From Synechococcus sp. A15-24 (lineage in GTDB: Bacteria > Cyanobacteriota > Cyanobacteriia > PCC-6307 > Cyanobiaceae): a stretch of 32,000 bases of DNA. The stretch is taken from positions 870,001 through 902,000 of the forward strand of contig NZ_CP047960.1 in NCBI RefSeq assembly GCF_014280195.1. The letters are read 5' to 3'. Each line of letters starts with the position of its first letter. The stretch's first letter is position 1. Shown here piece after piece: positions 2,616 through 32,000 of this stretch. Position numbers and translations under genes: made by a program. Under the pieces are notes generated by a model. That model saw only the letters and a program-made list of their open reading frames with translations, was not told where the DNA came from and ran no database searches.

Positions 2616-4018
2616 GCGATCTCGGTCAGCACGGCAAGGCGTGATGGGATCTGATCACCCCAGAGCTGCCGTTGCTCCAGCAGCCATTGCAGCCGTGCTC
2701 CATCCAGCCGTTCCCCTGGCACTAACAAGGGAATGCCGGGGGGGTAAGGACAGAGCAGATCGGCAGCAATCGTTCCCTCCGCCTGTTCCAGGGCGCAGAG
2801 GCGGCGGGGTGCCCGCCAGGCTTCAGCGAGGGGGACCTCCGGTTGCGCCACCAGCGGTAGTGGGGGTGGAAGCAGGGGCGGCTGAGGAGCGCGGCCGGGA
2901 TGGGCGTTCAGCAGTTGCTTCCAGGCACGGCGCAAGGTCCGGCGTAGGCCTCGCTGGTAGGCAAGTCCCAGGCAGAAGGTGAGTGTTGCCGGCTCCGGCA
3001 GCTCCGCCACCAACCCCCGTGGCAGAAGCCAGTCGTCGGCGTCCAGGCCGCTGATGCCGGCACGGCCCGAGTGCAGCACCAGCCGCAGCGGGTCGTCGGT
3101 GGTCAGCAGCGGCAGGCCATCGCGGCGCAGCTGGTCCCGCAGTGTTCGGGCCTGTACCAGTCGTTGGCGCAGTTGCCGGCGACCAGCGCTGCTGCGCCAG
3201 TGGTGCAGCGCGGCTTCACAGGAGGCCAGAAGTAGTGCACTGGGGCTGGTGGTCTGCAGCCAGCCCAGGCTGCGCTGCAGCGCAGCGATGTCCACGCGCT
3301 CCCCCTGCTGCCAGAGCACGGCGGTCTGAGCCAGTCCCGTCGCTGACTTCTGCAGGGAATGCACCACCAGATCAGCCCCCCCCTGCAGCGCACTTGGGGG
3401 CAGCTCTGGATCCACGTCTGCAGCGAAATGACTGCCATGGGCCTCATCCACCAGCACGGGCCAGCCCCGCTGCTGCAGGCTTCGGATCAACGGTGCAGGG
3501 TCCAGCCCATAGCCCTGATAAGTGGGATGCACCAGCACTGCCGCGCTGATCGGTGGATGCTCCGCAGGAAGGGCCGCAAGAACGCTCTCGAGCCACGGTG
3601 CATCTGCGGGAGCAGGGTGGCCGCGGTCTGGCTGGTAGGGCAGATCGAACAGCAGTGGCGTGAGCTGGCCAAGCAGGCAGGCCTGAATCAGACAGCGGTG
3701 CGCATTGCGAGGCATCAACACCGCCTCCCCGGGGCGGCTGATGCCCAGCAGGGCCGCCTGCAGCAATCCTGTGGCTCCGTTGACGCCGTACCAGCAGCGG
3801 TTGACCCCCATCGCATCCGCTGCAGCACGTTGGCTGTCGGCCACGGCTCCGTCGTTCTCCAGTGGCCCCCCCAGCGCCGGTAGTTCCGGCAGGTCCCAGA
3901 GGCCGGCGGGTCGTTGCAGCAACCGCCGCATCGCCGGAGGGAGGGCTGAGCCCCGTCCATGGGCCGGCAGAAACAGCGGGCGACCGACGTCTCGATGCAA
4001 CAGCGGCAGCAGGGCCAT
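2612..4018 (-). CDS. Orn/Lys/Arg decarboxylase-family PLP-dependent enzyme
   Basis: FLPAHGRGSALPP near the N-terminus and HSLQKSATGLAQTAVL (PLP-lysine region). I prefer the ATG at 4018 (MALLPLLHRD...) over the track start at 4117, which would overlap the divergent ABC1 gene. Confidence 0.8.
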   Translation of the reverse strand: MALLPLLHRDVGRPLFLPAHGRGSALPPAMRRLLQRPAGLWDLPELPALGGPLENDGAVADSQRAAADAMGVNRCWYGVNGATGLLQAALLGISRPGEAVLMPRNAHRCLIQACLLGQLTPLLFDLPYQPDRGHPAPADAPWLESVLAALPAEHPPISAAVLVHPTYQGYGLDPAPLIRSLQQRGWPVLVDEAHGSHFAADVDPELPPSALQGGADLVVHSLQKSATGLAQTAVLWQQGERVDIAALQRSLGWLQTTSPSALLLASCEAALHHWRSSAGRRQLRQRLVQARTLRDQLRRDGLPLLTTDDPLRLVLHSGRAGISGLDADDWLLPRGLVAELPEPATLTFCLGLAYQRGLRRTLRRAWKQLLNAHPGRAPQPPLLPPPLPLVAQPEVPLAEAWRAPRRLCALEQAEGTIAADLLCPYPPGIPLLVPGERLDGARLQWLLEQRQLWGDQIPSRLAVLTEIA

Positions 4019-4068: not shown

Positions 4069-5718
4069 ATGCGATACGACCCCGGCCGCGATCTACGCTG
4101 GCTGCTGCTGCGACCATGGATCGCCATTCCCCGCCTGATCCAGGTGTTGTGGTCCCTGGGGGGTCTCGTGCTGGTGCTGCTGCTGCAGGGGGGCAGCTCG
4201 GACTCAGCTGTGCAGCAACGGCTGGCCCGCCGCATCCTCAACACCCTCACCGGATTGGGGCCCTGTTTCATCAAGGTGGGGCAGGCCCTGTCCACTCGTC
4301 CTGACCTCGTCCGCCGGGACTGGCTTGAAGAGCTGACACGACTTCAGGACGACCTTCCCGCCTTCCCCCATGCCCTGGCACTGGAGCGCATTGAACAGGA
4401 GCTCGGTGCATCGGCCCATGAGCTGTTCGACGCGTTCCCGGATGCTCCGATCGCGGCCGCCAGCCTTGGACAGGTCTACAAAGCCCGTCTGGAAGGGAAT
4501 GCCTGGGTTGCCGTGAAGGTACAGCGCCCCAACCTCACCTTCATCCTACGCCGCGATCTGGTGCTGATCCGTCTGCTGGGTGTCATCACAGCTCCGCTGC
4601 TGCCGCTCAATCTCGGTTTCGGTCTCGGCGACATCATCGATGAGTTCGGTCGCAGCCTGTTTGAAGAGATTGACTACGTCCAGGAAGCCGACAACGCCGA
4701 ACGCTTCGCCAGCCTCTTCGCCGACAACGACGCGGTTTACGTTCCGCGGGTGGAGCGGATGCTCAGCTCCACCCGGGTGCTCACCACCACCTGGATCGAT
4801 GGCGTCAAGATGCGCGACAGCGACGAGCTGCAGGCGCTGCAACTCGACCCTGCCGCACTGATTCGCACCGGGGTGATTTGCGGCCTGCAACAACTGCTGG
4901 AATTCGGGTACTTCCATGCCGACCCGCATCCCGGCAACCTCTTCGCACTGCAGGGCCGCAGCGGCGACCTGGGCCATGTCGGCTATGTCGACTTTGGAAT
5001 GATGGATTCGATCAGCGACAGCGACCGGCTCACCCTCACCGGAGCCGTGGTGCATCTGATCAACCGCGACTTTGCCGGGTTGGCTGAGGATTTTCAGTCG
5101 CTCGGCTTCCTCAGCCCCAGCGCGGATCTCACCCCGATCGTGCCGGCCCTGGAGGAGGTGCTCGGCGGCAGCCTTGGGGACTCCGTCGGCTCGTTCAACT
5201 TCAAGGCGATCACCGATCGCTTTTCAGAGCTGATGTTCGACTATCCCTTCCGGGTCCCGGCACGCTTCGCTCTGATCATCCGGGCGGTGGTCAGTCAGGA
5301 GGGGCTGGCGCTGCGTTTGGATCCGAACTTCCGCATCATTGCTGTCGCCTATCCCTACGTGGCACGACGGCTGCTGGCGGGGGACACCCGTGAGATGCGC
5401 GACAAACTGCTGGAGGTGATCTTCGATGCGGACGGGCGTCTGTCCCTTGATCGGCTGGAAAACCTTCTTGCTGTGGTCGGTCAGGATGCACCAGCACCTG
5501 GAAAAGAACTGCTGCCCGTTGCTGGTGCAGGCCTGCGCTTGTTGCTCAGTCGCGATGGTGCCGATCTACGCAAACGACTGCTGCTCACCCTGATCCGCGA
5601 TAACCGGTTGCACACCGATGACGTGCAGGCGCTGATGGGACTGATGGCCCGCACCTTCGGTCCAGCCCGGATTGCCGGTGGCCTGTTGCAACGCCTCAAT
5701 CCTCTGGCGGCTGCCTGA
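4069..5718 (+). CDS. ABC1/UbiB (AarF) family atypical kinase
   Basis: GPCFIKVGQALSTRPDLV, AAASLGQVYKARL, VAVKVQRP and FHADPHPGNL are hallmark ABC1 motifs. Start could be GTG 4048 or ATG 4069. Confidence 0.85.
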   Translation: MRYDPGRDLRWLLLRPWIAIPRLIQVLWSLGGLVLVLLLQGGSSDSAVQQRLARRILNTLTGLGPCFIKVGQALSTRPDLVRRDWLEELTRLQDDLPAFPHALALERIEQELGASAHELFDAFPDAPIAAASLGQVYKARLEGNAWVAVKVQRPNLTFILRRDLVLIRLLGVITAPLLPLNLGFGLGDIIDEFGRSLFEEIDYVQEADNAERFASLFADNDAVYVPRVERMLSSTRVLTTTWIDGVKMRDSDELQALQLDPAALIRTGVICGLQQLLEFGYFHADPHPGNLFALQGRSGDLGHVGYVDFGMMDSISDSDRLTLTGAVVHLINRDFAGLAEDFQSLGFLSPSADLTPIVPALEEVLGGSLGDSVGSFNFKAITDRFSELMFDYPFRVPARFALIIRAVVSQEGLALRLDPNFRIIAVAYPYVARRLLAGDTREMRDKLLEVIFDADGRLSLDRLENLLAVVGQDAPAPGKELLPVAGAGLRLLLSRDGADLRKRLLLTLIRDNRLHTDDVQALMGLMARTFGPARIAGGLLQRLNPLAAA

Positions 5719-5763
5719 TCAGTTGCCGCTAGGGTCGCGACTTTCAAGCCATCTGAGGCGTCG

Positions 5764-6183
5764 ATGCCCGAGGAAATCACCGCTGAACAGCTAGAGATGC
5801 TGTTGCAGATGGCCGTGCTGCCCCAGCCTCCTTACCTGATGGCTGGTGTGGGGCTGTTGATGGGTGTGTTGTGCGGGTTGACCTTTGGCCGTCAGGTGCA
5901 GGACAAGCTCGATGGCTGGAAGCAGGATCGTCTTCCGCTTCTGCCTCTGGCCACAGCGGAGATCAGCCTCAGCTTCACCGGCATCCTGATAGGGATCACC
6001 CTGTTCATCGGCTGCTGCCTGCAGATCTTCGGCTTCGCCGCCGGTGCGGCGCTCCTGGTGGCGTTGTTGCTGTCGCTGCTGACGGGTGGTGCTCTCTTCG
6101 CTCAGCTGGAGCGATTGATGCTGCAGGTGGAAAGCGGCAACTTCAAGGCCGTTGATTTCGACAACTTCGACGAGTTCTTCTGA
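5764..6183 (+). CDS. small integral membrane protein, unknown function
   Basis: 139-aa ORF with three hydrophobic spans and an acidic C-terminus (DFDNFDEFF). Codon bias is host-like. The long antisense ORF 5791-6918 is judged spurious. Confidence 0.6.
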   Translation: MPEEITAEQLEMLLQMAVLPQPPYLMAGVGLLMGVLCGLTFGRQVQDKLDGWKQDRLPLLPLATAEISLSFTGILIGITLFIGCCLQIFGFAAGAALLVALLLSLLTGGALFAQLERLMLQVESGNFKAVDFDNFDEFF

Positions 6184-25462: not shown

Positions 25463-25680
25463 TCGATGGAGCCTTGCGTGGCCGGTAGCTTGTGGAGCCG
25501 ATCCGAGCCCAGGGCCACACGCCACTTGGTGAGCCAATCCCGTTCTGCGAATCCAGCTGACCAGCGCTGGGGTTTCTGGCCGCTGCTGCCGCTCACTTTT
25601 TAGTTGTAGGAACCAGTCTGAGGTGCTTGTCCCTGAGTTGTCCCTCATTTTTTGTGCAACTGGGCTGGATTGTGGGCAAG
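25463..25680 (+). repeat. island junction repeat, copy A
   Basis: Shares a perfect 29-mer CAGCGCTGGGGTTTCTGGCCGCTGCTGCC (25562-25590 = 29814-29842) and 16-mer TTTTGTGCAACTGGGC (25650-25665 = 29902-29917) with copy C, plus weaker flanking similarity. Carries an extra insert of about 50 nt relative to C. Confidence 0.8.
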
Positions 25681-26325: not shown

Positions 26326-26624
26326 GTGTTTCTGTTGTTCTGTGTGTCTGTTCAAATCATGATAAAGCTCGACAGGATGGCCTTCTATGAGTTTGCGACT
26401 CTCTTGAGCTGAAAAGGAAACTAAGGGTTGTACAGCAAAGTATGCTTTTCTTGGGCGCAAGTTGATATTTTGGATTCAAACAAATAATGCCTTTCAGCTT
26501 TTCCACTCTCTGTGAATCTTATAACAAATGCCAAGCACGGCTTTGCGGGCAGCCAGTGGCTTCGGCAAAAACAAGCATTACCAATACCGTTTCTTCTAGC
26601 TTTGTAAGGAGAAATGGCCAACAC

Positions 26625-27341
26625 ATGTCTTCAGGCTGGATATCGATGCCACGTGATCGGCAGCCTGAGGTCATGGACCAACCTGGTCTCGATCCTGCTG
26701 AGCATGTCCGAGCCCTTCAAGGTCTTCGACGGATTAATGCCATCAGTCGTTGTGTACCAGGCCTTTTGCGTTATTTAGAGAAGCTCGCTAGCGAAAGTCC
26801 CACGACTCAGTTGAGCGTGTTGGAGCTGGCTTGCGGAGGTGGTGATACGGCAATTGAGCTTGATGCGCTCGCTCGAAGACGTCACCTCAACATCTCGTTT
26901 CAAGCTTGTGACCTGAACCCTGAAGCTGTGCGGATCGCGCGCCGCAATGTTGCCAGATCAGAAAGTGGTGTTGGTGTGTTTGTTGAGGATGCTCTTGAAC
27001 CGTCTGGATCCAAGCAATTTGATGTGGTGTATTGCACACTTTTTGTTCACCATCTCGATCCACCCGATGTGGTGCGACTACTCAAAGGGATGGCAGCTAG
27101 GGCTCGTCGACTTGTGATTGTTGACGATCTGATTAGGAGCCGTCTTGGGTATTCCTTGGCTTGGATGGGTACGCGACTGCTGAGCCGATCTTGGGTGGTT
27201 CATCACGATGGACCTGTGTCAGTCAAGGGGGCTTACACCCCCACGGAGATTTTGGATCTCGCCTCTCGAGCCGGTTTGCGTGACTGTGTTCTGGAACGGA
27301 GCTGGCCAGAGCGCTACCGGCTCTGCTGGACACCCCACTGA
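26625..27341 (+). CDS. class I SAM-dependent methyltransferase
   Basis: Motif I VLELACGGGD, acidic loop ACDLNPEAV, and post-I/II motifs (FDVVYCTLFVHHL). Start preferred at ATG 26625 (MSSGWISMPRD...). Stop TGA 27339-27341 lies 1 nt before the next ATG. Confidence 0.85.
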   Translation: MSSGWISMPRDRQPEVMDQPGLDPAEHVRALQGLRRINAISRCVPGLLRYLEKLASESPTTQLSVLELACGGGDTAIELDALARRRHLNISFQACDLNPEAVRIARRNVARSESGVGVFVEDALEPSGSKQFDVVYCTLFVHHLDPPDVVRLLKGMAARARRLVIVDDLIRSRLGYSLAWMGTRLLSRSWVVHHDGPVSVKGAYTPTEILDLASRAGLRDCVLERSWPERYRLCWTPH

Positions 27342-27342
27342 C

Positions 27343-28488
27343 ATGCGAAGCAATTGGGATGTCATCGTGATTGGGGCAGGAGTTGCCGGAGGCTTGGCAG
27401 CCTTCGATTGTGCAAATCGCGGCCTGCGAGTTCTGGTGGTTGAGAAACGGTCCTTCCCCCGCTGGAAGGTGTGTGGTTGCTGCTTTAACGCCAATTCTCT
27501 GGCATCACTGAGTGCCACAGGCCTCCCGAACCTCATGCACGATCAAGGTGCTGTGCCTCTCGATCAACTTCGTCTTGGTTGGGGTGGTAAGTCGCTCAAG
27601 CTTGGTTTGCCAGGCGGTTTGGCTTTGTCAAGGGAGCGCTTTGATCAGGCTTTGGTCAACGCCGCTGAGGGTGCTGGCGCAACATTGCGCTTTCGAACCA
27701 GTGCCGTGCTTGAGGAGATGACTCCTGAAGGTCGAATGGTGCGGTTACGTCCTCCCAGTGGTGCTCCAGTGGAACGTATCAGTGGCCGTGTCGTACTGGT
27801 CGCAGCCGGCTTAGAGCACCAGGTGATTTCTCCATCTCATGCGGCCAGTTCCAAAAGCACCCCGGAATCGAGGCTTGGTGCGGGTTGCCTCATCGCCGAT
27901 GACGACGGAACTTACGAGTCTGGGACCATTCATATGGCCATTGGCCAGCATGGCTACGTCGGCTTGGTTCGCCGTGAAGATGGTGCTCTGAACTTGGCTG
28001 CTGCTTTCGACCGCGCTGTGGTCAAGTCTTCCGGCGGTGTGGCGCGTGCGGCACAACTTGTTCTGACTCAAGCCGGCTTCGCCTTGCCTCGATCTTTGGA
28101 GTCGTCTCGCTGGCAATTAACCCCCGCACTGACCCGTCGTGCCGGTGCGTTTGCAGGGCATCGCTTTTTGTTGCTCGGCGATGCGACAGGTTACGTGGAG
28201 CCTTTTACCGGTGAGGGAATGGCCTGGGCTCTTGCTGCGGGTGCGTCGGTTGCTCCCTTTGTTGAGGAAGCTCAGGGGGAATGGACAGTGGATCTGGAGC
28301 GGCGTTGGCGAAGAAGGCTGGTGGATCTGACGATCAGTCGTCAGCGCGTGTGCAGTGTGTTGTCGACTGTGTTGAGACAACCGCTCACCACAACCGCATT
28401 GTTCAGCCTCGGGTCTCAATGGCCTGCTGTACCGCAACGCATTATCAGCAGCCTCAATCGCGTGCATCCCCTAATGGCGAGGTCTTAA
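27343..28488 (+). CDS. FAD-dependent oxidoreductase, geranylgeranyl-reductase/flavin-monooxygenase fold
   Basis: DVIVIGAGVAGGLAAFDCANRGLRVLVVEK (GxGxxG + E), FPRWKVCG, and LLLGDATGYVEPFTGEGMAWAL (GD motif). Start at ATG 27343 rather than the track start at 27208. Confidence 0.85.
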   Translation: MRSNWDVIVIGAGVAGGLAAFDCANRGLRVLVVEKRSFPRWKVCGCCFNANSLASLSATGLPNLMHDQGAVPLDQLRLGWGGKSLKLGLPGGLALSRERFDQALVNAAEGAGATLRFRTSAVLEEMTPEGRMVRLRPPSGAPVERISGRVVLVAAGLEHQVISPSHAASSKSTPESRLGAGCLIADDDGTYESGTIHMAIGQHGYVGLVRREDGALNLAAAFDRAVVKSSGGVARAAQLVLTQAGFALPRSLESSRWQLTPALTRRAGAFAGHRFLLLGDATGYVEPFTGEGMAWALAAGASVAPFVEEAQGEWTVDLERRWRRRLVDLTISRQRVCSVLSTVLRQPLTTTALFSLGSQWPAVPQRIISSLNRVHPLMARS

Positions 28489-28491
28489 TCC

Positions 28492-29586
28492 ATGCCTCTC
28501 ATCCTTCACGGAATGGGTACGGCAGTACCAACTCAGCGATTGAGCCAGGCAGAAGCGGTGCAAGTGGCGCATCGCATCAATGCAGAAAGTCCTGAGCATT
28601 CAAGGCTGATGTCGCGCATCTATCAGAAAACCAAGGTTCTCACCCGTGGAAGTGTGCTCCTCGAGAATGATGGTCTCAATGGCACGAGCACGACCAAGGA
28701 TCGTCTCAGTTTCTACGGCTCAGAAAGCCCTGGGACGGCACGACGGATGCATGCTTATAACACTCACGCCGGTGGGTTGTCTCTTGAGGCTGCTACGAAG
28801 GCGCTATCTGATGGTGATATCTCATCAGGGGCGATCACCCACCTCATCACGGTCAGTTGTACTGGGTTTCATTCACCTGGTATTGACCTTTTCTTGATTG
28901 AAAAGCTTGATCTATCGCCGAGTGTTCAGAGGACACACATCGGATTCATGGGATGCCACGCTGCGCTGAATGGCTTGCGTGTTGCCCATGCCTTCGCGGA
29001 AATGGATCCAAAGGCGGTTGTTTTGGTTTGTGCTGTTGAGCTTTGTAGCCTCCATATGGCTTATGGCTGGCACCCAGAGAAGGTCGTTGCCAATGCTTTG
29101 TTTGCTGATGGGGCGGCTGCTGTTGTCGCCTCCTCGGATCCTTCCCTTTCTGATCAATCCTTGGTCTTGCGCCGCAGTGGCTCAACAGTGATTCCTGATA
29201 GTGCAGATCTGATGCAATGGGAGATTGGCGACCATGGTTTTGCGATGGGGTTGTCTCCCCTTGTTCCGGAAACGGTTGGTGCTGCCTTGTTGCCTTGGTT
29301 GCGAGATTGGCTCAAGGATCAGTCGATTGATCTTGAGGCGGTGACGAGCTGGGCTGTGCATCCTGGCGGACCCAGAATTCTCTCCACCTGTGCAGAGGTT
29401 TTGTCGTTGGACCCAGGCCTACTGCACGAATCCAGAGGCATACTTCAGGATCACGGCAACATGTCATCCGCAACGATCCTGTTCATTCTTGATCGATTGC
29501 GTCGGCGGTCAACTACTGGTCCTTGTCTTGCACTGGCCTTTGGCCCTGGGCTGAGTGCTGAGGTTGCACTTTTTGATTTTGAATAA
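28492..29586 (+). CDS. type III polyketide synthase (chalcone/stilbene synthase superfamily)
   Basis: Cys-His-Asn triad contexts are all present: ITVSCTGFHSPG, WAVHPGGPRIL, DHGNMSSATILFIL. Also C-terminal AFGPGL. ATG lies 3 nt after the upstream stop. Confidence 0.92.
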   Translation: MPLILHGMGTAVPTQRLSQAEAVQVAHRINAESPEHSRLMSRIYQKTKVLTRGSVLLENDGLNGTSTTKDRLSFYGSESPGTARRMHAYNTHAGGLSLEAATKALSDGDISSGAITHLITVSCTGFHSPGIDLFLIEKLDLSPSVQRTHIGFMGCHAALNGLRVAHAFAEMDPKAVVLVCAVELCSLHMAYGWHPEKVVANALFADGAAAVVASSDPSLSDQSLVLRRSGSTVIPDSADLMQWEIGDHGFAMGLSPLVPETVGAALLPWLRDWLKDQSIDLEAVTSWAVHPGGPRILSTCAEVLSLDPGLLHESRGILQDHGNMSSATILFILDRLRRRSTTGPCLALAFGPGLSAEVALFDFE

Positions 29587-29702: not shown

Positions 29703-29933
29703 CAGTGGCGTGAATCTTTTCAGTGATTTTGCTCTGCCTTGCCCCTTTCCTTCGACAGAATCACTGCATCGATGGGGAGTGTGGTGGCTGGAGCTGGTGT
29801 GAATCCTGCTCATCAGCGCTGGGGTTTCTGGCCGCTGCTGCCACTCGGTTTCATGTTGCAAGAATAGGTCGAAGCTGCTTGTCCTTGAGTCGTCTCTGGA
29901 ATTTTGTGCAACTGGGCAGGATGGGGTGCAACG
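29703..29933 (+). repeat. island junction repeat, copy C (contains both the A-like and B-like parts)
   Basis: See copies A and B. Copy C is the only one that matches both of the others along its full length. Confidence 0.8.
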
Positions 29934-30028
29934 ACAACCATCTCCTTACCTGAAAAATTCCTCCGGATTGAAAACGTGAATCTCGGGAAGCAGCAGAGTT
30001 TCTTGCATGGACTGAGAAGGAAGCCGCG

Positions 30029-30463
30029 TTAAAGCATTTCAGGACGCAATCTGCTGGGCCGATAAGAGATCAGGAAGGCCTGTTGGCCGGCAGCCTCTGA
30101 TTTCACGGCAGTGATCAGGTCTTCACCGGTGTTCCAGACCCAGACCTGGTCGTTATGGCTGTCGTGGTCGAGGCTGGTGCTTAGCGGTGGCCCATGTTGA
30201 GCGCGCAGGCCTGCAAGCACCTCTGTCATGTCATCAATGGCGAACTCGTAAGCCAGCTTCGTCAGCCCTTGTTCTGGGTCGACTTCAAACGTGGCCTGTG
30301 AAACGGGGAGTCGATCCAGAAACACATCTCTCTTGATGTAGCAACCGTCCTGCTCTTCGTTCAGGGCTTGGCCTTGACCCAGATGGATCGCCACTTGCTC
30401 GAACGGCATGCCCCATGCCAGCCCTTCGACGCAGGCGTCCACCCTGCCAGCGCTGCAGAACAA
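30029..30463 (-). CDS. hypothetical protein (orphan cargo)
   Basis: 144-aa ORF from a TTG start; an internal ATG gives MPFEQVAIHLG... No motif I can name. Sits alone between repeat copy C and the motif array. Confidence 0.45.
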   Translation of the reverse strand: MFCSAGRVDACVEGLAWGMPFEQVAIHLGQGQALNEEQDGCYIKRDVFLDRLPVSQATFEVDPEQGLTKLAYEFAIDDMTEVLAGLRAQHGPPLSTSLDHDSHNDQVWVWNTGEDLITAVKSEAAGQQAFLISYRPSRLRPEML

Positions 30464-30725
30464 AAGCAGCCCTACTTACGCCGTGATCAGAAGGTTCTGG
30501 AGTTGGTGCAGCACCTTCATGCGGCGATCAATCACTGTTCAGATTTTGTTGGTTCGTAGGGCCGTTGCCTACTGCCTTTTGAGGACAAGCCCCTTAACAA
30601 GTTCAATGTTGTGACGCCGCAGTTTGAGCAGTCTTGAAGCCCTTTAGCCCAGTTGAGGCTCGCCAGGCATCTAGGTGCACCTAAGCGAGGGTCTTCCTGG
30701 TCAGTTTCCCTATACCCCCCGCCAG

Positions 30726-30943
30726 TTGTCCCAGGGTGGGGTTTTTGAGTGCCTGACTGGGATTTACCCTGGGACAACCCATTTTTTTCAGAGGAGTTGT
30801 CCCAGGGTAGATGGGTACACCTATCTGTCTCAGAAGCGCCTGGGACATTTTCCGTCAATTCAGCCGATTGTCCCAGGGTTGTCCCAGGGTTGTCCCAGGC
30901 CTACTTCCCTTGCAACGACTGGATTTAACCCTACCTGGGACAA
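30726..30943. repeat. array of 8 copies of the 11-bp motif TTGTCCCAGGG in both orientations (iteron/operator-like)
   Basis: Forward copies at 30726, 30797, 30868, 30879 and 30890 (the last is 10/11). Reverse copies (CCCTGGGACAA) at 30767, 30838 (9/11) and 30933 (10/11). A partial copy, TTGTCCCGG, is at 31003. Three copies are head-to-tail with an 11-bp period (30868-30900). Confidence 0.9.
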
Positions 30944-31078
30944 AAATAATTCTCTGTCTCCCCGCGAGGCAGTCACGGCCCAATAAACCAAATTTCCGAG
31001 CCTTGTCCCGGTCGGTTCGGAATCGATCAAACCCTTCGCCTTAAGCCGCTGGAGCGATTTCCTGACCGCCGCGTCCAC
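30860..31078 (-). pseudogene. possible truncated winged-helix DNA-binding ORF whose 3' end runs into the motif array
   Basis: GTG-initiated 72 codons, VDAAVRKSLQRLKAKGLIDSEPTG..., resembling the recognition helix and wing of MarR/Rep-type wHTH. The frame is open for about 115 nt upstream with no start codon, suggesting a 5'-truncated remnant. The last 13 codons are encoded by the triple 11-bp repeat. Confidence 0.3.
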
Positions 31079-31377
31079 TTTCGGCCTACGGTTAGTGACT
31101 CCACCTCCTCGCGCCTCAGAGGCCCTTCTGCACGCAATAGAGCCCGCTCCTCTTGTGCGCTTCGATGTTTTGCAGATGTTGACCCGAGGGTTTAGCGCTG
31201 TTCAACATCTTTGGATCCCTGCAGGTGGCTTTCTGTTTGTTTAATAATTGATCTTGTTATGATGATTGCATCGATTTTTTGCATTGCTTGTGCTTCGAGT
31301 TGAGGTTGATGTTTAACTAATGTTGATTACCTCTTCCCTTGAAGCTTATTTGATACGGCCTTAACTGTAGAAAGCAA

Positions 31378-31749
31378 ATGACCTCACCTGTGATTGACGA
31401 TTTTTGTGTGGAAGATCTAAATGATGGGATCTATTCACTTAAGACTACCGAAATGTCTTCTGCTTGCTCAGTTGATAATGTGTCTGAGCTCGAGGAACTG
31501 GTGAGTCGAGAGTATAAGAATATTTGTTCTACATTGTGTTTAGATGACGATGGCGATCGACTCTTGCTGAAAGCTAAATGCTTAGCGCATGTTCAATTGC
31601 TTGGAGCTTTTTTTCATAATTACCAAAAATATTTATACAAGTCTTATGATCACGAGATGGCAAAGCATTTGTATGCTGATTGGTCTCGTCTAGGTATAGC
31701 ATTTAACGTAATTGCAAATGTTCAGAATTCCAGGTTGGGTGATGGTTGA
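31378..31749 (+). CDS. hypothetical protein in an AT-rich cassette
   Basis: 123-aa ORF with AT-rich codon usage unlike the host. No recognisable motif. Confidence 0.5.
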   Translation: MTSPVIDDFCVEDLNDGIYSLKTTEMSSACSVDNVSELEELVSREYKNICSTLCLDDDGDRLLLKAKCLAHVQLLGAFFHNYQKYLYKSYDHEMAKHLYADWSRLGIAFNVIANVQNSRLGDG

Positions 31750-31948
31750 GCCTACATTGTTTAGTATGTATGTATAAATGTTGGAATTACTCGATGACCG
31801 CTTTTGTTATGACATGATCAGCAGCAACGCTGGTCTGTTTCTCCCGGTACGGAGTGGCACAGGCTTAAGAATTTCTTTGCGTGGGGTTTCGTTTTTTGCC
31901 TCTTTGCGCTTTCAGTAGTTGCTAATAATATTCAGCTCTAGCAATTCA

Positions 31949-32000
31949 ATGGCATCGACGTCTAAATCATGGATGCGTACCCGTGAACTTGCTGAATATC
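31949..32000 (+). CDS. start of an ORF cut by the window end; possible excisionase/AlpA-type HTH
   Basis: ATGGCATCGACG... translates MASTSKSWMRTRELAEY. The TRELAEY segment resembles the first helix of MerR/excisionase-type HTH domains. Only 17 codons are visible. Confidence 0.2.
   Translation, partial: MASTSKSWMRTRELAEY

Follow-up and report, generated by a model that had tools for sequence, protein, structure and literature searches.

A repeat array in a truncated phage-type primase–helicase gene of Synechococcus as the putative iteron field of a replication origin

The Rep protein of the Staphylococcus aureus pathogenicity islands (SaPIs) has a C-terminal winged-helix domain, and 6–12 iterons lie just 3′ of its gene (PMC9371898). 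The origin of phage λ lies inside gene O (PMC7157519), replication of N15 initiates inside repA (PMC2847241), and ORF904 of pRN1 combines a Prim-Pol domain, a helicase and a winged-helix region, with the origin just downstream of the gene (PMC4234260, PMC2777425). Degraded mobile-element remnants are reported to be frequent in picocyanobacterial islands (bioRxiv 10.1101/2020.12.28.424599). Here we analyse an array of eight short repeats in a 32,000-nucleotide stretch of the genome of Synechococcus sp. A15-24 (NZ_CP047960.1, positions 870,001 to 902,000; hereafter the window). We judge it probable that the array is the iteron field of a phage replication origin lying inside the end of its own primase–helicase gene, and that the window copy is the decaying remnant of a phage-like element that was integrated or recombined.

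The array and the gene remnant that carries it

A word-indexed search with a 113-amino-acid (aa) query from the remnant returned only P0001, a 77-aa fragment encoded on the 1.2-kb marine metagenome contig L139, which is the orthologous locus (87.5% identity over window 30680–31910). An exhaustive HMMER search with P0001 led to P0002, a protein of 853 aa whose residues 685–759 are 81% identical to P0001 and which consists of a Prim-Pol domain (E = 7.5e-15), an AAA_25 domain (E = 2.2e-11) and then a C-terminal winged-helix-like domain. At its locus, L141, the gene is followed by those for DNA polymerase A and a dCTP-deaminase-family (DCD) protein.

By blastn, window 30699–31135 shares 94.1% DNA identity over 440 nt with L141 2270–2706, inside the intact 853-aa gene, and in alignment A2 the homology to L141 breaks off sharply at both ends. 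With P0002 as a tblastn query, only residues ~670–833 were present in the window, comprising the winged-helix-like domain's C-terminal half and the repeat-bearing tail with the whole array; primase and helicase are absent. The first helix of the domain has been deleted in the window lineage, and a one-base deletion splits the coding of helix 2 (in the frame of ...AEGPLRREEVESLT) from that of helix 3. Homology, breakpoints and frameshift together identify the array as the tail of a truncated, frameshifted phage-type primase–helicase gene. Because it lacks primase and helicase, the fragment cannot act as an autonomous origin. The features of the remnant, in gene orientation, are as follows.

30699..31135, − strand: 3′-terminal relic of a phage-type Prim-Pol/AAA_25 primase–helicase gene (blastn, tblastn and alignment A2)
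31087..31088, − strand: one-base deletion (frameshift), ACCGT-AGGCC in the window against ACCGTAAGGCC in L141; three-frame translations concur
30860..31078, − strand: 72-aa open reading frame (ORF), a winged-helix-like leftover with the putative recognition helix DAAVRKSLQRLKAKG and the wing, continuing into the first four repeats
30957..30969, − strand: CCTCGCGGGGAGA box immediately upstream of the array, encoding ASRGD and conserved at the DNA level in all lineages
30933..30943, − strand: repeat 1, TTGTCCCAGGT, in gene orientation; first arm of inverted pair 1, at a position occupied in L141, L139 and all relatives
30918–30922: weaker CCAGT copy in the spacer of pair 1
30868..30900, + strand: repeats 2–4, head-to-tail with an 11-bp period; second arm of pair 1, starting 45 nt past repeat 1
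30838..30848, − strand: repeat 5, ATGTCCCAGGC (9/11); first arm of inverted pair 2
30814..30821, − strand: GGTGTACC box in the spacer of pair 2
30797..30807, + strand: repeat 6; second arm of pair 2, 43 nt past repeat 5
30767..30777, − strand: repeat 7; first arm of inverted pair 3, in inverted repeat I5 with perfect 13-nt arms
30756..30761, − strand: CCCAGT box in the spacer of pair 3
30726..30736, + strand: repeat 8; second arm of pair 3, 43 nt past repeat 7, and the final repeat before homology to the intact gene stops at ~30699

The eight copies of TTGTCCCAGG(G) fall within 218 bp (30726–30943), and no further copy within one mismatch occurs in the 32 kb. When up to two mismatches are allowed, TTGTCCCAGGG has 24 matches in the window against 13.3 ± 3.9 in shuffled sequences; every match with zero or one mismatch lies inside the array, and the other 16, all with two mismatches, are dispersed at background density. 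Five copies are on the + strand (30726, 30797, 30868, 30879 and 30890, the last matching at 10/11) and three on the − strand (30767, 30838 at 9/11 and 30933 at 10/11). The phasing described in the first-pass annotation is exact, with 71 nt between successive forward copies and likewise between reverse copies, an offset of 41 nt between forward and reverse copies, and an 11-bp period in the head-to-tail triple at 30868–30900. The 71-nt period is nevertheless specific to the lineage of the window and L141 and is not universal across lineages. The flank said to be common to two reverse copies is real (GGATTTA(A)CCC, repeat family D12).

The same annotation had counted a partial ninth copy, near 31001–31011. 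This copy sits in the part coding for the wing and is a chance match, since it is missing from both L139 and L141; the last base of the array proper is 30943. Of the A/T runs described in or beside the array, that at 30941–30950 is conserved, whereas the T-run at 30782–30788 is not, L141 and L139 having GAGGAAAA instead. The 72-aa ORF reads DAAVRKSLQRLKAKGLID... and is 84% identical to P0001 and 81% identical to residues 685–759 of P0002, with weak Pfam matches to the PaaX and LexA DNA-binding families on its helix. A GGTGCACC palindrome lies at about 30676–30683, just beyond the L141-homologous region.

Arrays and putative recognition helices in the viral relatives

Searches with P0002, and then with an alignment, gathered ~20 relatives on viral contigs at 29–57% protein identity; their IMG/VR contigs span 48–74 kb. 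Ten proteins scanned around the gene in L149 include an HNH endonuclease, a RusA-like resolvase, thymidylate synthase, an exonuclease, a DNA polymerase and dCTP deaminase, a set that marks a phage replication module. Among cultured or deposited phages the closest protein is from Synechococcus phage S-CBS4, with 25.6% identity over 31% of the protein, and the cultured-phage database held no close relative of P0002. The window remnant itself is 41% identical over 54 residues to the helix region of L011, and the first 138 loci collected gave no blastn match to the window.

In the P0002 gene, the repeats start ~10 codons past the winged-helix-like domain, and in every intact homologue the array falls in the final ~350 bp of the gene. 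Nearly every relative has a single 7-mer that is strongly enriched at the gene's 3′ end, with 6–9 copies in most; L143 and L147 have five exact core matches, and L164 has degenerate copies only. The first-pass annotation had named a loss of motif number and spacing in relatives as grounds for refutation; the array withstood this check, with about 15 diverged relatives keeping 6–9 copies in a like layout. Written in gene orientation, with '<' for a TGTCCCA-type and '>' for a TGGGACA-type copy, the layouts are as follows.

Window and L141: <>>><><>
L139: <>><><>
L142 and L149: <>>>>><>
L148 and L146: <>><><>
L011: <>><<><<>
L160 and L165: <>><><<>
L163: <>><<<>
L168: <>><><>

The first '<' precedes the tandem block by 43–46 nt, the tandem period is 10–13 nt, and the last '<' precedes the last '>' by 42–45 nt; this spacing holds in the window, L139, L141, L142, L146, L148, L149, L011, L160, L163, L165, L168 and L166/L169. 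The universal units are thus an inverted pair 42–46 bp apart (~44 bp) and a tandem block at 10–13 bp. Tandem copy number at the position of repeats 2–4 varies, being two in L139, three in the window and L141, and four in L142 and L149 (12–13 bp period).

In every lineage the repeats use all three reading frames and both orientations, so that in P0002 they are read as LGQ, PGT, WDN, LSQ and VPD. In L166 and L169 the array straddles the stop codon, with the last inverted pair beyond it. The tail peptides cannot be aligned between lineages, whereas the DNA layout can. The use of three frames and both orientations, together with the copies past the stop codon, indicates that the repeats are DNA sites and not a peptide repeat.

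The spacers of the inverted pairs, described at first as unrelated, are not: two of the three share a CC(C)AGT box, the third has a GGTGYACC box, and both boxes recur in relatives. GGTG(C/T)ACC occupies the corresponding position in five of six L141-clade lineages scanned, in frame 1 in L141 and L142 and in frame 2 in L148, L143 and L146; L149 has the variant GGTACACC there, with no exact match. CCCAGT recurs in pair spacers of L141, L142, L149, L146, L011, L160 and L163, in differing frames. A CCTCGCG(C)GGGGA box stands ahead of every array compared, and L011-type lineages have in addition an inverted copy of it, TATCCCCGCGCGAGG, past the array. Unlike the repeats, all three boxes do not switch with the winged-helix variant. 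They may serve as sites for a further factor or in priming.

The repeat core, by contrast, switches as a set between lineages, tracking substitutions in the putative recognition helix. The pairs of helix and repeat are these.

A(V/I)RKSLQRL with TGGGACA: L141, L142, L148, L149, L165 and L168
AIRKALQRL with TGGGACA: L011
AIEKSLTRL with TCAGACA: L143–145 and L147
AVAKSLERL with TGCGACA: L146
AIRKSVQRLH with TAGGACA: L166 and L169
AIKKALQRL with GGGGACA: L160

L148, L143 and L146 are close relatives with near-identical wing and flanks, and among them two residues and two bases switch together. A profile of 12 of the domains, searched against the PDB, returned winged-helix proteins only (ZitR/MarR, Lrp-type and S19e), at sub-threshold E values of 0.05–1. 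In Pfam, all matches of the 12 domains were under the cut-offs and fell on TrmB (6/12 members, best E = 4e-4), GntR and MarR_2. In the sub-threshold profile alignment, the conserved helix aligns on the recognition helix of MarR/ZitR.

Origin, relic and competing readings

The first-pass annotation had suggested a multi-site protein-binding platform, and among its proposals this putative function is the best supported by comparative evidence, namely the layout kept in ~15 relatives and the co-variation of helix and repeat. Of the candidates that it named, an iteron-type origin has the strongest support, from the location of the array at the 3′ end of a primase–helicase gene, after the winged-helix-like domain. 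Its attribution to an integrated satellite or plasmid-like element does not stand, the source being a phage-type gene of which a 440-bp fragment is present. In such an origin, the winged-helix-like domains of a helicase oligomer would bind the repeats. The inverted pairs, 42–46 bp or about four helical turns apart, and the tandem copies, about one turn apart, would place protomers in opposite orientations along a single face of the DNA. Bound protomers would then load the helicase and melt the DNA, and the fused primase would start synthesis; loading would follow a self-loading-helicase mode as in SaPI Rep.

Several observations weigh against an origin that survives in the chromosome only as a decaying copy. 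Origin function is argued from position, architecture and analogy. The winged-helix assignment is sub-threshold in both the Pfam and the PDB sequence searches, and the AlphaFold model of the domain, built on a shallow alignment, has a mean pLDDT (predicted local distance difference test) of 53, too poor for a fold search, with a helix order compatible with H1-H2-H3. Helix and repeat follow no simple code, given that L163 (AIKKSLQRL) keeps TGGGACA and L160 (AIKKALQRL) has GGGGACA. Unlike SaPI origins, the arrays show no clear AT-rich unwinding region at their centres; the AT content of the arrays is 44–58%, near the locus average, and the flanking AT-rich patches are modest (30-nt patches of 63–80% AT at the array edges or up to ~150 nt outside). 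As for decay, all eight repeats of the window copy are intact, the fragment stops only ~27 nt past the last of them, the truncated arrangement recurs in a second lineage, and substitutions in the coding part are biased towards synonymous ones, as set out below.

The second lineage is a family of 5′-truncated primase–helicase 3′ ends from marine metagenomes (L172 204–1007, L173 810–1331, L175–L178 and L174 1–390; P0004–P0009) that keeps the winged-helix-like domain and the array. Most members share one junction, at which the leader MINxLNLIDFHEFIYFYV... is joined at ...AEIPEDKREHLPNY; L175 differs upstream. Their tandem repeats are TGGACA in L172, L175 and L176 and TGGGACA in L173 and L177. Two neighbouring genes accompany truncated ends.

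31378..31749, + strand: 123-aa ORF, syntenic beside truncated primase–helicase 3′ ends in two diverged lineages
31949..32000, + strand: start of a small helix–turn–helix (HTH) protein, MASTSKSWMRTRELAEY..., cut by the window end

In L139 a homologue of the 123-aa ORF adjoins the relic at 87% aa identity, and in L173/L174 at 51% (L174 424–777). The ORF was not found in IMG/VR viral contigs and has no Pfam or PHROG match, and a metagenome scan found it on one 1.5-kb contig. Exact-protein look-ups of this ORF and of the window's polyketide synthase gave no record. L174, which has DNA homology to window 31461–32000, encodes a full 64-aa homologue of the HTH protein (1010–1204) matching Pfam HTH_17 (excisionase/AlpA-type) at E = 1.4e-5 and 25.7 bits, against a cut-off of 27 bits. 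The two ORFs may mark a mobile element continuing past the window end, and whether the 123-aa ORF is part of the same unit as the relic is uncertain.

These neighbours bear on the idea that the host copy has been retained because it is functional, as a satellite-like origin that the primase–helicase of an infecting phage would fire in trans, with hitch-hiking or amplification of the island, or as a decoy or dominant-negative module, composed of the origin repeats and a truncated origin-binding peptide, against phage replication. We regard this as unlikely. In its favour, two diverged lineages (window/L139 and L172–L178/L174) carry a truncated 3′ end with an intact array beside the same two neighbour genes, and the module has the look of one carried by hosts or islands, given that the viral contigs did not yield the 123-aa ORF. 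The remnant coding part shows 14 synonymous against 4 non-synonymous differences over 57 codons between the window and L139, the ratio of non-synonymous to synonymous substitution rates (dN/dS) is 0.27 between L172 and L173, and the frame is open through to the natural C-terminus in P0004 and P0009. The window fragment is also nearer to the intact L141 gene (94%) than to its own orthologue in L139 (87%), which suggests ongoing exchange with phages. Helper-triggered island replication has precedents, among them SGI1 (PMC7433901).

Against retention stand independent disruptions: the window frameshift, a +1 frameshift in L176 and L177 right past the helix, another frameshift in L173, and the loss of 12 nt from helix 1 in L172, besides the deletion of helix 1 in the window lineage. 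Substitutions between the window and L139 (4/79 in repeats, 17/161 in spacers) are not significantly rarer in the repeats (Fisher p = 0.22), and the tandem copies differ in number (three in the window, two in L139). The synonymous bias could derive from recombination with functional phage alleles, one chromosomal copy would make a weak decoy, and the sister-lineage contigs are all of 2.1 kb or less. A stronger form of the idea, on which we put slightly less weight, has islands deliberately retaining a phage-derived module of origin and origin-binding domain beside the 123-aa and HTH genes, either as a trans-replicated satellite without a replicase or as a decoy or inhibitor, with exchange of phage alleles keeping its specificity current. 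The recurrent truncated arrangement is a candidate for an anti-phage or satellite function. We take the window copy to be probably a non-autonomous, inert relic, and the locus is a documented case of part of a phage replication gene fixed in a genomic island of a host.

The setting of the relic is a bacterial chromosome, with genes for ribose-phosphate pyrophosphokinase, a UbiB-like kinase and metal transporters. The G+C content is ~63% until ~25 kb, 50–58% at 25–31 kb and 43% beyond 31 kb. Scans of the island ORFs with Pfam and PHROGs gave no matches, and a search with the window's 144-aa ORF returned a single 1.4-kb TARA scaffold. A cluster of a methyltransferase, a FAD-dependent oxidoreductase and a type III polyketide synthase (DpgA-like, under the NCBIfam cut-off) at 26487–29586, in the 50–58% G+C stretch beside core genome of ~63% G+C, probably represents cargo of the island, with an alkylresorcinol-type or related product. 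The TARA Oceans scaffold L140 is 98.4% identical to window 29756–30757 and diverges completely thereafter, and a 134-nt stretch of it matches window 25546–25679 at 78%; this pattern indicates an island that is mosaic between strains, with a short dispersed repeat.

The remaining alternatives concern the array itself. As an operator, it would let the C-terminal domain of the primase–helicase, or another repressor, control transcription of the downstream DNA polymerase module. In all intact loci the array does follow the helicase domains and precede the next genes (a small ORF, then DNA polymerase A), and binding by the winged-helix-like domain would fit repression equally well. However, 6–9 sites across ~220 bp, in both orientations and in a coding region, are unlike known operators; fusion of the domain to a primase–helicase is the usual arrangement of an origin-binding initiator; and a promoter scan of the window copy found no promoter-like site. 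This candidate of the first-pass annotation is left unsupported, and we consider it highly improbable.

More improbable still is that the inverted pairs act as RNA or single-stranded DNA stem–loops or cruciforms (a terminator, an RNA element or a single-stranded primase signal) and not as duplex protein sites. The '<' and '>' pairs are complementary, with arms of up to 13 nt (I5), and their arms change together between lineages in a way that mimics compensatory change. The array region also folds better than shuffled sequences (z = −3.3), which follows from the presence of inverted repeats and does not discriminate between the readings; in a terminator scan, the terminator-like matches were the repeats themselves. 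The stems of a lineage are, however, all one sequence, and 2–4 extra tandem copies are unpaired, as expected of iterons and not of independent stems. The predicted loops are 28–38 nt, the L011 order <>><<><<> cannot be nested, Rfam gave no gathering-threshold match anywhere in the window, and changes in the repeats track amino-acid changes in the adjoining helix.

Lower again we place an array of recombinase or recombination directionality factor (RDF) arm sites in an att region, or a parC/parS-type partition centromere of an integrated element, both raised in the first-pass annotation. The tandem triple resembles the λ P′ arm sites, the array lies at a drop in G+C from ~55% to 43%, and a small HTH_17-like ORF is 1 kb off. 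Against arm sites, the 32-kb window holds no tRNA or tmRNA, and no integrase turned up in the scanned ORFs close to the array, in the set of ten proteins from around L149 or in the gene calls of L141. Against a centromere, ParA, ParB and ParM are likewise missing from those two neighbourhoods, whose scanned genes serve replication and nucleotide metabolism, and no partition gene was found in the window ORFs at 24–32 kb. In intact relatives, moreover, the array is internal to a replication gene and its repeats co-vary with the helicase's own C-terminal domain. A pure by-product of a low-complexity peptide tail, with no role at the DNA level, is excluded: in most lineages the C-terminal tail does include the translated array, but one DNA word yields unrelated, unalignable peptides and runs past the stop codon in L166 and L169.

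An iteron field of a phage origin is therefore the reading that we prefer. It would locate a likely replication origin and its origin-recognition domain for a widespread group of uncultured marine phages. The pairs of helix and repeat, each set apart by one or two helix substitutions, form a natural specificity series for how winged-helix initiators may read DNA. For annotation there is a caution, in that an origin can run through a coding region in all three frames.

Similar arrays and known replication systems

When viral contigs were scanned for two copies of TTGTCCCAGG in tandem, 18 loci were returned, several with dense TTGTCCCA-core arrays, each just past or inside a replication-initiator gene.

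L011/L009: 803-aa protein with Prim-Pol (sub-threshold), PriCT_2 and AAA_25 domains and the C-terminus ...AIRKALQRLENKKVIV
L007 (array 4150–4620): 504-aa AAA_25 protein, with an AlpA-type gene upstream
L001 (array 3025–3190): 734-aa protein, primase–helicase-like by sequence appearance only
L003 (array 1580–1860): VapE-like protein of 840 aa
L017 (array 5620–5890): 305-aa HTH initiator-like protein, with the array within the gene

L007, L001, L003 and L017 are unrelated initiator genes with TTGTCCCAG-core arrays, independent cases that speak for the origin reading. Because their DNA-binding helices differ from that of the window, the common motif may reflect convergence or the way in which the loci were selected. 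In L019–L138 (for example L021 7265–7320), Collinsella carries many copies of a ~56-nt palindromic element bounded by TTGTCCCAGG and CCTGGGACAA, which looks like a dispersed repeat of the repetitive extragenic palindromic (REP) or miniature inverted-repeat transposable element (MITE) kind, unrelated to the window array. A scan of the genome collection for convergent motif pairs yielded, among the matches listed, one Synechococcus match (L104), a chance pair in a coding region; the rest were mostly the Collinsella element.

Among described elements, the picocyanobacterial island remnants of the tycheposon literature resemble the window locus in having a replication-module fragment in a low-G+C island near a small excisionase-like HTH gene. 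They differ in that the window has no integrase, tRNA or att repeat and in that the source here is a phage-type gene beside DNA polymerase A; the window stops 1 kb past the relic, a span from which tycheposon membership cannot be judged.

pRN1 ORF904 shares the fusion of a Prim-Pol domain at the N-terminus to a helicase and a winged-helix DNA-binding region. Its helicase, in contrast, is of superfamily 3 (SF3), its origin is a stem–loop and not a multi-copy iteron field, and pRN1 is an archaeal plasmid. N15/PY54 RepA and the P4 α protein likewise unite primase, helicase and origin binding in one polypeptide, with other primase and helicase families. P4 α has a DnaG/toprim-type primase and an SF3 helicase, and its C-terminal winged helix binds repeated octamers in ori and crr. 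P4 thus uses two separate sites, whereas the 14-kb loci analysed here showed no second cluster.

With λ O, the array has in common that the repeats lie within the initiator coding sequence, in a poorly conserved linker or tail, and that the adjoining part encodes the DNA-binding domain. Lambdoid phages also exchange repeat and initiator specificity together. O differs in being neither helicase nor primase, host DnaB being recruited via P, and in having its DNA-binding domain at the N-terminus. The λ origin has four iterons, each a 19-bp inverted repeat, with an AT-rich region after them.

SaPI Rep and Pri-Rep are also helicase initiators (primase-fused in SaPI5) with a C-terminal winged helix; their iterons directly adjoin the 3′ end of rep, the sites on the two sides facing in opposite directions, and the iteron sequence varies between elements and sets specificity (PMC9371898). 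The helicase here is instead AAA_25 (RecA/DnaB-like, RepA-type) where that of SaPIs is superfamily-3/MCM-like, and the primase here is Prim-Pol. The repeats here are of 7–11 nt against 5–6 nt, the array lies mostly within the coding region and has no obvious central AT-rich block, and its carriers are phage-like genomes of 48–74 kb with their own DNA polymerase and not satellites. The array type itself is already known from the iteron origins of initiator genes, of which this phage family would be a further example.

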